DNA of 63,141 nucleotides, filler included, from Reticulomyxa filosa (taxonomy: Eukaryota > Protista > Foraminifera): assembly GCA_000512085.1 (NCBI GenBank). It is 18 parts of 18 records of this genome, joined end to end, with 100 filler letters (N's around TTAATTAATTAA, not from the genome) between each part and the next. Parts side by side here need not be neighbours in the genome. Positions count along the whole stretch, not along the records: positions 53,521 to 61,344 come from ASPP01020283.1; 17 more parts are not named here. One strand, written 5' to 3'. The notes below the pieces were generated by a model, which was not told where the DNA came from, did not search any database, and saw only the letters and a list, made by a program, of their open reading frames with translations. The first letter of the stretch is position 1. Each line of letters opens with the position of its first letter. A program made the position numbers and the translations under genes. This document shows, piece by piece, positions 58,543 through 61,330 of the stretch.

Positions 58543-61330
58543 GTCATCAAATGAGGCTCTTTTTCTTCGTGCATATGTCGTAACAACTGCTCCCGCATTT
58601 CCATATCTTGAGAGGGCGAGCCATGCGAACCCATTCGCAGCGGCAACACAAGTGGACGTAGCGACCCAATTGCCCGGTCACTACGTACATTTTCCCCCCA
58701 AAACAGTGGTGAGATTGTGGCCGTGGGAGGAGAAATAAGGGCTGGGGTGGAGGTGTGGGTTGGGGTCTGATTCGTAACGACACTAGTTGTTTCATTGACA
58801 TTGATACTTGAATTCGAAGCGGAAGCCGTGGGGAGATTTGGAATTGTCGTCGATGTTGGCGTGGACTCGGTGAGTTCGGATTCGTTTGAATTTAAAATCA
58901 AACTGCCACTGCTGCTACTGCCTCGTGGATAATAAGAACTTAGGCGTTTCTGATGGGCGTCGAGTTTATGCTGATCCTCTTTCCACACAAATACTTTGGA
59001 AATGGGTTTGCGCAATTGGATAAATGTGTGTCGAGGATCATGTGACATTAATGATAAGTCCTTTGAAAGCATTCCTTGATGATGTTTCCGTTCACATTCA
59101 TAGCATAAATGAAAACCATTCTTTGCCGATTGTGTATAAGGAGTATCATTTTCTGCTTTTGTACTTTCCACTTGTGCGTTTGGAGTAAACCTTTTCAATT
59201 GTTTTTGTATTGTATTGCATCATATTATATAGCAAACTAAGTCTTTAATATGTTTTATTTTATTTTGTTTTGTTTTGTTTTGTTTTGTTTGCATCAACAA
59301 GTTTAATACAAATAAACACAGGGAAATCGTGTTTCTGTTTCACACAAGTCGTGTATATGGATATTTGAAAAGTGAACCCCAAAGATCCATTGATTCTGTT
59401 ATCTACGGTACAATTCAAACAAGTATATCGCACGCCTCGAATAGGTTGCATTCCACAGCCATGGCACATGAATCCTCGATGAATGATGTGCTGTTGATAC
59501 CATTCATGCAGTTGCATGCATGTCCTGGATTTGTCATTTGTCCCAAGCGCCTGCTTGTAATAATCCACAATGTCTTTGTCCGAGGAATGGTCCAATTCCA
59601 CTTGAGGCAATTGGAATTCCATCTTCTCGTGGTTCCGTAACACATCCAATGGCAACTTCATCATTACATGACTTGTGTGATCATGATCACATTCATGTGA
59701 TTCCATTAAATGTTTCGTTAGACTGTGTTTATGTATGCGTGGTTAAGTAAAACCAAATTATTGTTTCTGAAAATTGAAAAAAATATACATATATGCATGC
59801 ACATATAGGTATAGAACACTCACTCTGGTTGTGTCACCAAGTTTTTCTGTTGTATTCCATTTGCTTCACAAATGGGACACAAAACGACTCTTGGATCATC
59901 AAAGTGGATTTCTTTGATATGCTGAATGACTTGTTTGGTGGTCATTTGTTGGAATGGACATTGATTATAGCAGCAATTGATTCGAATGTGTGGAGGCACT
60001 ACCTTGTTGCCAGGTTTCTGTTGCTTTTGATATTGCATATACCGTTGAATCAAAGACGACGGCATTCCAACTGACTCCAAATGCACTATTTCTTCGCAAT
60101 CTTCACACAAGTCGAAATCACCACAACGAGAGCACTTATAGCGGACTCCCTTTTGATGTATCCCATATGTGTGGATACATACTCATGTCCGTGTATTATG
60201 TACAACACATTATATAAAAAATATATATAGATGTATATGTATACGTGTGTATACACATGATAACAACTTGAATGCAAGGGGTTTTTGATTTTCTGCATCG
60301 GTCACAAATAATTTTGTAGTGATAAGGATATGTCAATTGCAAAAAATGCAAGGCATACTCTTTGCCATTCGGCAACAATGGAACTTCATCGATGCTATTT
60401 CTTCGACTTAGATTTTGAACACTGTGTTGTCGACTGTGTGCACTATCCACCGTGTCGGTGACTACATTACGAATATCATTGTCCTTGCGAAACATCATCC
60501 ATTCGCGTTCCAATGTTATGTCGTTGGACCAAGTCACTGCGATTTCACGGTATGATGTACCCAGTCGAGTTTCCCCACTCAGTTGCAAACGATTGTATTG
60601 CGGGAACACAAAATAGTATGGATCAATTCGAGACAAGTCATCCTGTATTTTTTTTTAAAAAAAAAAAAAGGGGGAAAGAAAAAGCACACATTCTGACTCA
60701 GAAAATTTTTATTAAAAAAAAAAAAGGAAAAATAACTGCAGCTCGCATAGCCATTAAGATGTCACAACAAATGTGAACCAAATTGATACTGAATCCATCT
60801 GTGGTTTCTTGAGCGCTATTGGCCAAACGATTTTGAAATTGTGTACGACTTAGATTATCTATGAAGTCAAACTCTGCTGTGTTTTTTTCCTTCTACGTGT
60901 AAACAGCCCTACAAGGAAGGAAAGACGAGAGATAAAAAAAAAACTTCGTATGACACCAGCCACCCATGTGTGAATGACCGTCTTCCAAACGTTTTTATTT
61001 TGTCGAAGCAATTGCTCTTGGAAAGTATTGTGATCATTGGGAAAATCCATTTGCAGCAAAGTCGTATCTCCAGCAAAATAGAGTTGTTGAAATAAATACT
61101 CTTGCAGCCGTATCCGCGGCATGAGTCCTCGAATTAGCACATCTCGGTCATTCTGATCGAATCGCCAAATATCTATTCTCTGTTGTTTGGTGGATTTCAA
61201 GTACTTGTTATATTCATCAAGCGCCAGAAGTAATTGTCGTGGAGATCCGCTGCTGTCACTGCTCATCGACCATTCCGGTGACGCTACATTCGTATCGCTA
61301 CTGTTGTCAAATGCATCGTTCGGTGCATTT
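55303..61330 (-). CDS. UFD2/UBE4-type U-box ubiquitin chain elongation factor with inserted ZZ and Di19-type zinc fingers (multi-exon, 5' partial)
   Basis: C-terminal U-box ([45 protein letters not shown]) and Ufd2 core motifs IDPYYF, SEWFHLT, LASLPEFMV, FIKNPHV, FVSHIMDDLTHMFDEML. Two ZZ fingers and a C2H2 pair lie between IDPYYF and SEWFHLT. Confidence 0.88.

Follow-up and report, generated by a model that had tools for sequence, protein, structure and literature searches.

A UFD2-type U-box ligase gene of Reticulomyxa filosa carries a KCMF1-like zinc-finger module within its Ufd2 core and may encode an N-degron reader

We analysed a stretch of 63,141 nucleotides (the window), joined from 18 records of the foraminiferan Reticulomyxa filosa (assembly GCA_000512085.1), and identified a UFD2/UBE4-type U-box ubiquitin ligase gene on its minus strand at 55303-61344. 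The gene encodes, in one chain, the Ufd2 core, about 600 inserted residues, the remaining core and a U-box. The insert carries two ZZ zinc fingers (ZZ1 and ZZ2) and a Di19-type double C2H2 domain, the DZB, which is predicted to be nested in ZZ1; we write this module as ZZ1[DZB]-ZZ2. By analogy with KCMF1, we consider it probable that a UFD2-type ligase with this module reads N-degrons and works as a one-chain E3/E4 enzyme, functionally like UBR4-KCMF1.

Results

A zinc-finger module interrupts the Ufd2 core of a single gene

Removal of 10 GT-AG introns from the locus gave a single open frame of 1,696 aa with one terminal stop. The frame is open at its 5′ end, and the 5′ part of the gene lies beyond 61344, the edge of its 7,824-base contig (53521-61344), so that the 11 exons encode at least 1,696 aa. 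Exons 1-6 lie at 61344-60945, 60858-60737, 60642-60268, 60149-59824, 59722-59378 and 59190-58251, and exons 7-11 at 58146-57586, 57518-56858, 56766-56197, 56161-55822 and 55753-55303. Along the minus strand, Pfam found ZZ, zf-Di19, ZZ, Ufd2P_core twice and the U-box, in agreement with the domains proposed in a first-pass annotation of the window. The U-box (55333-55554) matched PF04564 with E 6e-25 and 87.6 bits, and the U-box of yeast Ufd2 with E 1e-18, and its FLDPLM, DPV, DRSTI and DPF-x-R motifs are all present. Ufd2P_core (PF10408) was identified on two exon frames (E 3e-11 and 5e-5; 43 and 22.3 bits, cut-off 20.4). Both ZZ domains exceeded the curated cut-off (ZZ1 E 2e-6, ZZ2 E 3.5e-5), while zf-Di19 (E 9e-6) reached 26.2 bits, slightly below its cut-off of 27.5.

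The zinc module is flanked by the Ufd2 motifs IDPYYF (60627-60610) and SEWFHLT (58319-58299), as the first-pass annotation had placed it in a gene ending in a U-box; coordinates and Pfam agree with this placement, and all zinc-finger and Ufd2 motifs quoted there were found on the minus strand. The core before the insert (60523-61017, residues 110-214, with IDPYYF and GETRL) matched columns 383-480 of a profile built from 10 canonical UFD2s with E 6.5e-7, and a wider profile with E 2e-10. It is followed by ZZ1 from Cys1 to Cys6 (60096-60321), the DZB (59695-59975), the putative closing His pair of ZZ1 (H421 and H426, 59685-59670) with its last strand (59653-59685), and ZZ2 (59004-59481), which has eight zinc ligands. 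A Ser/Thr-rich linker of about 220 aa, longer than those of the homologs, leads from ZZ2 (58338-59003) to the resumed core (56904-58337, residues 808-1228). The Cys4-Cys5 spacing of ZZ2 is 38 residues here versus 4 in 11 homologs, and a long loop of 14-38 residues is common to the Reticulomyxa copies, P0022/P0023 and P0029.

NCBI lists two separate proteins at this locus, and no assembled contig covers the entire gene, which might suggest that the zinc fingers belong to a separate or nested gene or result from mis-assembly. RFI_23381 (P0001, 403 aa) is a 99% match to an exon frame of the locus and RFI_23379 (P0002, 874 aa) a 100% match to the U-box exon, and both map here; the annotation divides the locus between them, has an incorrect splice acceptor within ZZ1 and lets P0001 terminate at an intron. 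However, this is an intron that contigs skip, and the edges of the module lie on Ufd2 exons because each shares an open frame with a Ufd2 motif: the stop-free frame 60196-60654 on the minus strand holds IDPYYF and the start of ZZ1, and that at 58185-59219 on the same strand holds the end of ZZ2 and SEWFHLT. Moreover, an intronless JGI contig (L002) holds an open reading frame of 1,560 aa with all four domains, which also occur together in 6 more database proteins. For the family a separate-gene artefact is thereby already refuted, and for the window gene we give it practically no weight.

The contigs came from two probable RNA runs (X1 and X2) of one study, most of them 90-95% alike to the window. 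As these are runs of a close relative and their RNA type was guessed, they inform on splicing in that relative, not on expression level. The contigs skip five of the 10 introns, including all three within the module. The joints 60144/60263, inside ZZ1, and 59721/59824, inside the DZB, appeared in both runs, and 59183/59371, inside ZZ2, only in X1; they are compatible with GT-AG introns at 60267-60150, 59823-59723 and 59377-59191, respectively. Further joints, 58147/58252 and 57518/57586, lie in the Ufd2 core after the insert. The remaining five introns (two 5′ and three 3′) were modelled from P0001 and P0002 or from the frame alone, and the 35-base intron 56196-56162 is doubtful. Splicing across the module, done by eye in the first-pass annotation, is supported in the relative, though not by one contig spanning the gene.

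The best-supported codon differences between the window and the relative were synonymous in 16 of 20 cases inside the module, against 21-30% expected (p 5e-6), and in 23 of 30 cases in the linker. By this codon comparison, the module is under purifying selection.

A minor GT-AG joint at 57926/58000 (57927-57999, 73 bases), found in X1 at depth 2, would shift the frame of the Ufd2 core, while X2 reads through it; it was excluded from the gene model and is possibly unproductive splicing. Both runs also hold more distant contigs with loose ends at 58147 and 59411-59504. At an exon border, one of these resembles the paralog RFI_13303, which suggests that the relative transcribes paralogs as well.

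The insert occupies one fixed loop next to a Cdc48-binding position

The canonical profile breaks between columns ~480-491 and 493-504 in every member with both flanks. From the E-T-x-L motif to the position of yeast C385, we counted 23-38 residues in all 10 canonical proteins, versus 330-1,124 in 12 module-bearing proteins, with 617 here. The insert precedes the position of yeast C385 by 7-15 residues. As judged from these alignments, the insert occupies one fixed loop, at about residues 370-378 of yeast Ufd2. The AlphaFold model of the homolog P0022 aligned with yeast Ufd2 257-882 on both sides of the insert (VIA Z 28.7, root-mean-square deviation (rmsd) 3.4 over 551; Foldseek E 2.5e-20), indicating that the Ufd2 core is predicted to fold around the insert in this homolog, the only one modelled for this purpose. 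By core, U-box and fold, the window protein is a member of the UFD2 family.

At the C385 position itself, 14 of 15 members have an aromatic residue, Trp or Phe (Trp816 in the window protein), versus Cys in 9 of 10 canonical proteins, while the positions of yeast G274 and R844 vary even among canonical UFD2s. According to a review, the C385Y mutation disrupts Cdc48 binding by Ufd2 (PMC7017255). The aromatic residue may thus be linked to an altered use of Cdc48, which we offer as a lead only.

The DZB is predicted to be nested within ZZ1

In KCMF1, a His pair directly follows Cys6 of the ZZ domain, and the same holds for 13 of 17 unrelated ZZ domains. In contrast, the 24 residues after ZZ1 Cys6 contain no His pair in any of 20 members, while H-[DN]-x3-H-x3-K follows the DZB in all 14 aligned members. 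Of 21 rows scanned with a profile of unrelated ZZ tails, 15 gave this post-DZB site and P0015 in addition gave the same motif; in the window protein the site was the best ZZ-tail match (p 0.002, 500 shuffles). The scan preferred other sites in P0020, P0031, P0036 and P0038, and picked ZZ2's own tail in P0035; the closing-His motif is nonetheless visible in P0020, P0031 and P0035.

The AlphaFold model of the homolog P0035 (mean predicted local distance difference test (pLDDT) 84.5, predicted template modelling score 0.80, modelled without zinc) is consistent with this. Its residues 80-147 aligned with the KCMF1 DZB (Z 9.3, rmsd 1.7 over 61) and residues ~213-276 with whole ZZ domains. Whole ZZ domains also aligned to residues 33-161 across the DZB, with 54 of 57 residues of the BIG ZZ matched at rmsd 1.8 and Z 4.6, and the ZZ domains of PRT1, Ada2 and CBP likewise. 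The displaced His pair and these alignments across the DZB suggest the order Ufd2[ZZ1[DZB]ZZ1' - ZZ2]Ufd2 - U-box, in which the ligands of ZZ1 would be six Cys and the displaced His pair, and in the zinc-free homolog model the fold closes after the DZB. This replaces the linear order of ZZ1, Di19-type fingers and ZZ2 that had been read by eye. A split-ZZ topology of this kind was found in no PDB structure or paper among those searched.

ZZ1 retains the acidic residues of the KCMF1 pocket and ZZ2 does not

KCMF1 matched the module best in both sequence and structure, as the first reading had supposed: the best PDB match of the module profile was the KCMF1 ZZ-DZB (E 3e-19), Foldseek and VIA-align both ranked KCMF1 first for the homolog model, and the only Atlas clusters like the module were KCMF1-like animal ones (0.91). 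N-degron binding by KCMF1 needs D10, D29 and D31 (bioRxiv 10.64898/2026.09.15.751905; for D29 and D31 also PMC12286842). With the KCMF1 numbers read from its alignment to the module profile, and with ZZ1 aligned to KCMF1 and p62, their equivalents in the window ZZ1 are D288, D310 and D312. Among members that contain the relevant part of ZZ1, all 20 keep the D-[FY]-D pair; the residue equivalent to D10 is Asp in 16 of 19 and Asn in the other 3. In ZZ2, none of 19 members has a D-x-D pair, and 2 of 21 have the equivalent of D10; the window ZZ2 has His, Gly and His at the three positions and lacks an acidic pocket. The weight of this evidence comes from the contrast between ZZ1 and ZZ2, as ZZ2 serves as an internal control. 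The potential of ZZ domains to bind N-degrons, raised for the module at first, would thus lie in ZZ1 and not in ZZ2.

The same data bear on the possibility that the module does not choose substrates by their N-terminus but is a scaffold for protein interaction or targeting, whether to a partner, a chaperone, ubiquitin or a compartment, with the aspartates kept for a partner tail or for folding. Conservation holds for all three domains together, of which just one has the pocket; PDB titles name regulatory tails, H3 and SUMO1 among them, as ligands of ZZ domains; and the insert adjoins the Cdc48-binding determinant marked by C385Y (PMC7017255), so that it could mainly change the use of Cdc48. 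However, ZZ1 retains all three acids where ZZ2 of the same chain has lost them, and the closest known module, that of KCMF1, has been proven to receive substrates for an E4. We therefore regard a scaffold as unlikely, though it is the alternative that we take most seriously.

Docking of the ligase onto the UBR4/BIG ring in place of KCMF1 seems very improbable. The ZZ-DZB of KCMF1 does contact the DOC1 domain of UBR4 (PMC12286842), but the same paper finds KCMF1 fixed there through a C-terminal helix, and a module inside a chain has no such helix to offer. Among the contact residues that could be numbered, R20 is Val here and Y64, in the linker, is absent from the family, while E38 is kept. Still less credible is a Di19 domain that, like those of RNF114/RNF166, recognises ADP-ribose or ubiquitin-ADP-ribose, with the U-box extending chains. 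The Di19 domain of RNF114 does bind ADP-ribose and serves a ligase that extends chains (PMC12583694), and the RNF138 and RNF166 clusters are weak Atlas look-alikes of the module (0.81-0.82). However, the WGD motif is absent: in all 21 members the stretch of 12 residues that follows CP[IV]C (the second CxxC) lacks WG, and the DZB matches KCMF1 best.

The module defines a UFD2 subfamily

The architecture is not a one-off: database and JGI searches revealed the same ZZ/Di19/ZZ module in the same loop of 12 other database proteins and the one intronless contig. A phmmer search with P0001 against 1.84 billion representatives gave 22 matches, P0001 included. Ufd2P_core, ZZ and zf-Di19 occur in one chain in 11 of the other 21, and 3 of these 11 also have the U-box; the remaining 10 are five module fragments, two Reticulomyxa N-terminal pieces, two plain ZZ proteins and one KCMF1-like protein. 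A search with the module profile added P0036-P0038, and 8 of its 15 matches carry Ufd2P_core. Of 80 loci in the JGI scan, the DZB part was present in 3, one of which also has the Ufd2 core, the others being other ZZ proteins. None of 44 pattern matches in viral contigs was confirmed, and NCBIfam had no match for 7 family proteins.

The named members are only the R. filosa paralogs (RFI_13303, RFI_27678/27680 and RFI_33364) and P0022 and P0023, labelled Nonionella stella in EukProt and identical over their overlap; all others are JGI, ENA or Logan environmental records. With the window gene, RFI_13303 and RFI_27678/27680, Reticulomyxa has at least three paralogs. A word-seeded module search missed the known members P0019, P0022, P0023 and P0025, all within its length range, and thus absence from named Cercozoa, other stramenopiles, alveolates and Rhizaria, or Amoebozoa is not demonstrated.

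A tree on core and U-box columns, with the insert excluded, set 15 module-bearing rows apart from 12 canonical ones with a Shimodaira-Hasegawa-like approximate likelihood ratio support of 98.9, which fits one origin. This tree is quick and unrooted, with long foraminiferan branches, a profile partly built from the same rows and fragments left out, and an earlier one with the window protein on 99 columns only was discarded. From these sequence comparisons, we conclude that proteins with the ZZ1[DZB]-ZZ2 module form a conserved UFD2 subfamily. No UFD2 with ZZ or Di19 domains was found described in the titles and abstract openings searched, of largely non-subscription literature.

Some members carry further insertions. 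An intein-like insert lies just before the third zinc cysteine of ZZ1 in the ENA proteins P0033 (~763-1342) and P0038 (N-terminal, to ~175); it starts with Cys, ends with Gly-Gln before Cys and was called by these end motifs only. A second intein-like insert of ~420-460 residues, which starts with Cys and ends with Gly-Asn before Cys, occupies a shared Ufd2-core site after the module in P0031, P0036 and P0038, so that P0038 appears to hold both. Neither matched an intein family in Pfam, NCBIfam or PHROGs. An intein would be an unusual feature of a eukaryotic ubiquitin ligase. The ENA protein P0034 (192 aa) is KCMF1-like and stands alone, with Di19 after a complete ZZ, and its lineage would bear on the origin of the module.

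Two other coding regions were seen near the gene. A convergent gene whose product has a coiled-coil C-terminus reaches into the contig with its 3′ end at 53820-54419 on the plus strand; contigs of both runs cover it, and no family scored above cut-off. On the next contig, an open frame of ~348 aa at 61445-62491 on the plus strand has no Pfam match and is unrelated to the UFD2 gene.

Discussion

The window protein shares its Ufd2 core and C-terminal U-box with Ufd2, UBE4A and UBE4B (PDB 2QIZ, 9KHS). No zinc-finger family is listed in any of 12 canonical matches, as the first-pass annotation had said of canonical UFD2s, whereas the window protein has three zinc domains. With KCMF1 of the UBR4-KCMF1-calmodulin (SIFI) E4 (PDB 9JNI, 9UPZ, 9D9Z) it shares the ZZ and Di19/DZB domains, the acidic residues and the coupling to a chain-extending ligase. 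However, KCMF1 is a separate subunit in which a complete ZZ precedes the DZB and a C-terminal helix anchors UBR4, while in the window protein the DZB would lie inside ZZ1, a second ZZ follows, and the chain continues into the Ufd2 core and U-box. Domain placement also differs, with an rmsd of ~11 over 130 columns. The window protein is therefore not a KCMF1 ortholog, as two defining features are missing, the linear complete ZZ and the stand-alone form with the C-terminal helix. Single-chain ligases with a built-in ZZ reader have a precedent in Arabidopsis PRT1 (RING-RING-ZZ) and in BIG, the UBR4 ortholog with an internal ZZ (PMC11668491); these use other catalytic scaffolds and have no DZB in the chain, and PRT1 reads aromatic N-termini. 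RNF114 and RNF166 (RING-Di19-UIM) likewise place Di19 in a chain-extending ligase, but they have no ZZ and no Ufd2 core, and their WGD ADP-ribose pocket is absent here. In the PDB and literature searches we found no UFD2 host for such a module, no fixed internal loop of this kind and no split ZZ. The word 'convergent', used at first for the fusion, is fair for the coupling to an E4, while the module could be either a captured KCMF1-like gene or an independent assembly.

Yeast Ufd2 finds its substrates via K29 chains and partners, and its N-terminal region binds Rad23/Dsk2 and K29 chains (PMC5303827). The KCMF1 ZZ-DZB is described as substrate receptor and filter of the E4 UBR4 (bioRxiv 10.1101/2024.12.18.629163), while another paper reports instead that the KCMF1 ZZ supports ubiquitylation (PMC12286842). 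We propose that ZZ1 would capture the free N-terminus of a substrate, probably a basic N-degron, as KCMF1 does, and that an E2 bound to the U-box would add or extend ubiquitin on the captured substrate, presumably sending it to the proteasome. The His pair after the DZB would close the second zinc site of ZZ1 and so hold the DZB tightly to the reader by each of its ends, and ZZ2 and the DZB would provide structural or secondary contacts. Because the insert adjoins the C385 position, which is aromatic in the family, the built-in reader may also replace substrate hand-over by Cdc48.

Several points weigh against this proposal. N-degron binding by ZZ1, ligase activity and chain elongation are inferred from sequence and structure, and the proposal presumes that the pocket can reach the E2. 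The D-x-D pair is weak evidence alone, because it is common to most ZZ domains, the outgroup rows included, and ZZ pockets also read other N-termini, such as the histone H3 and SUMO1 tails named in PDB entry titles, not necessarily for degradation. The structure models are those of the homologs P0022 and P0035; Z values for domains as small as those of P0035 are middling, and the P0022 model has a mean pLDDT of 73.6 with low confidence in ZZ2 and the linkers. The codon counts were taken from the 55 best-supported differences, not from all. Furthermore, the window core is far more diverged than those of other members (best segment E 2e-10 versus up to 1e-115), and its FY[DE]KF motif is absent, while it is kept in all 10 non-Reticulomyxa members tested; E4-type elongation may therefore have been lost here.

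These last features raise the alternative that the family reads N-termini while the Reticulomyxa copy is a diverged paralog without UFD2-type elongation, acting as a plain E3 or an adaptor. The number of paralogs, the long branch and the low-complexity insertions in the core would fit, as might the loss of FY[DE]KF in both Reticulomyxa copies tested. On the other hand, the U-box is intact, the frame is open, and the relative shows splicing and purifying selection. We hold such a loss to be improbable, and continue to favour N-degron reading coupled to ubiquitin chain extension in one chain. A broader proposal is more tentative, and we put it at somewhat below an even chance: that this is an old protist subfamily of UFD2, a self-sufficient N-degron E3/E4 ligase which swallowed a KCMF1-like reader with a split ZZ and traded hand-over by Cdc48 for direct reading.

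UFD2s are known to obtain substrates via partners and ubiquitin marks and not by means of a built-in reader, and the N-degron pathways of the host protists are barely studied. A KCMF1-like reader in a UFD2 would be a further independent solution to linking ZZ to a ligase, beside KCMF1/UBR4, BIG and PRT1. It would offer one polypeptide for testing how N-degron reading gates chain extension, which is open for the UBR4 complex, and what the DZB contributes. A Ufd2 loop that tolerates 330-600 inserted residues may be useful for engineering targeted ligases; the gene also exemplifies a putative split ZZ fold and corrects a divided NCBI annotation. KCMF1 itself is described as restricted to metazoans (bioRxiv 10.1101/2024.12.18.629163). 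If the broader proposal is true, these protists would possess, in one chain, a minimal equivalent of the UBR4-KCMF1 machine of 1.3 MDa, with a ZZ-DZB reader working outside animals.

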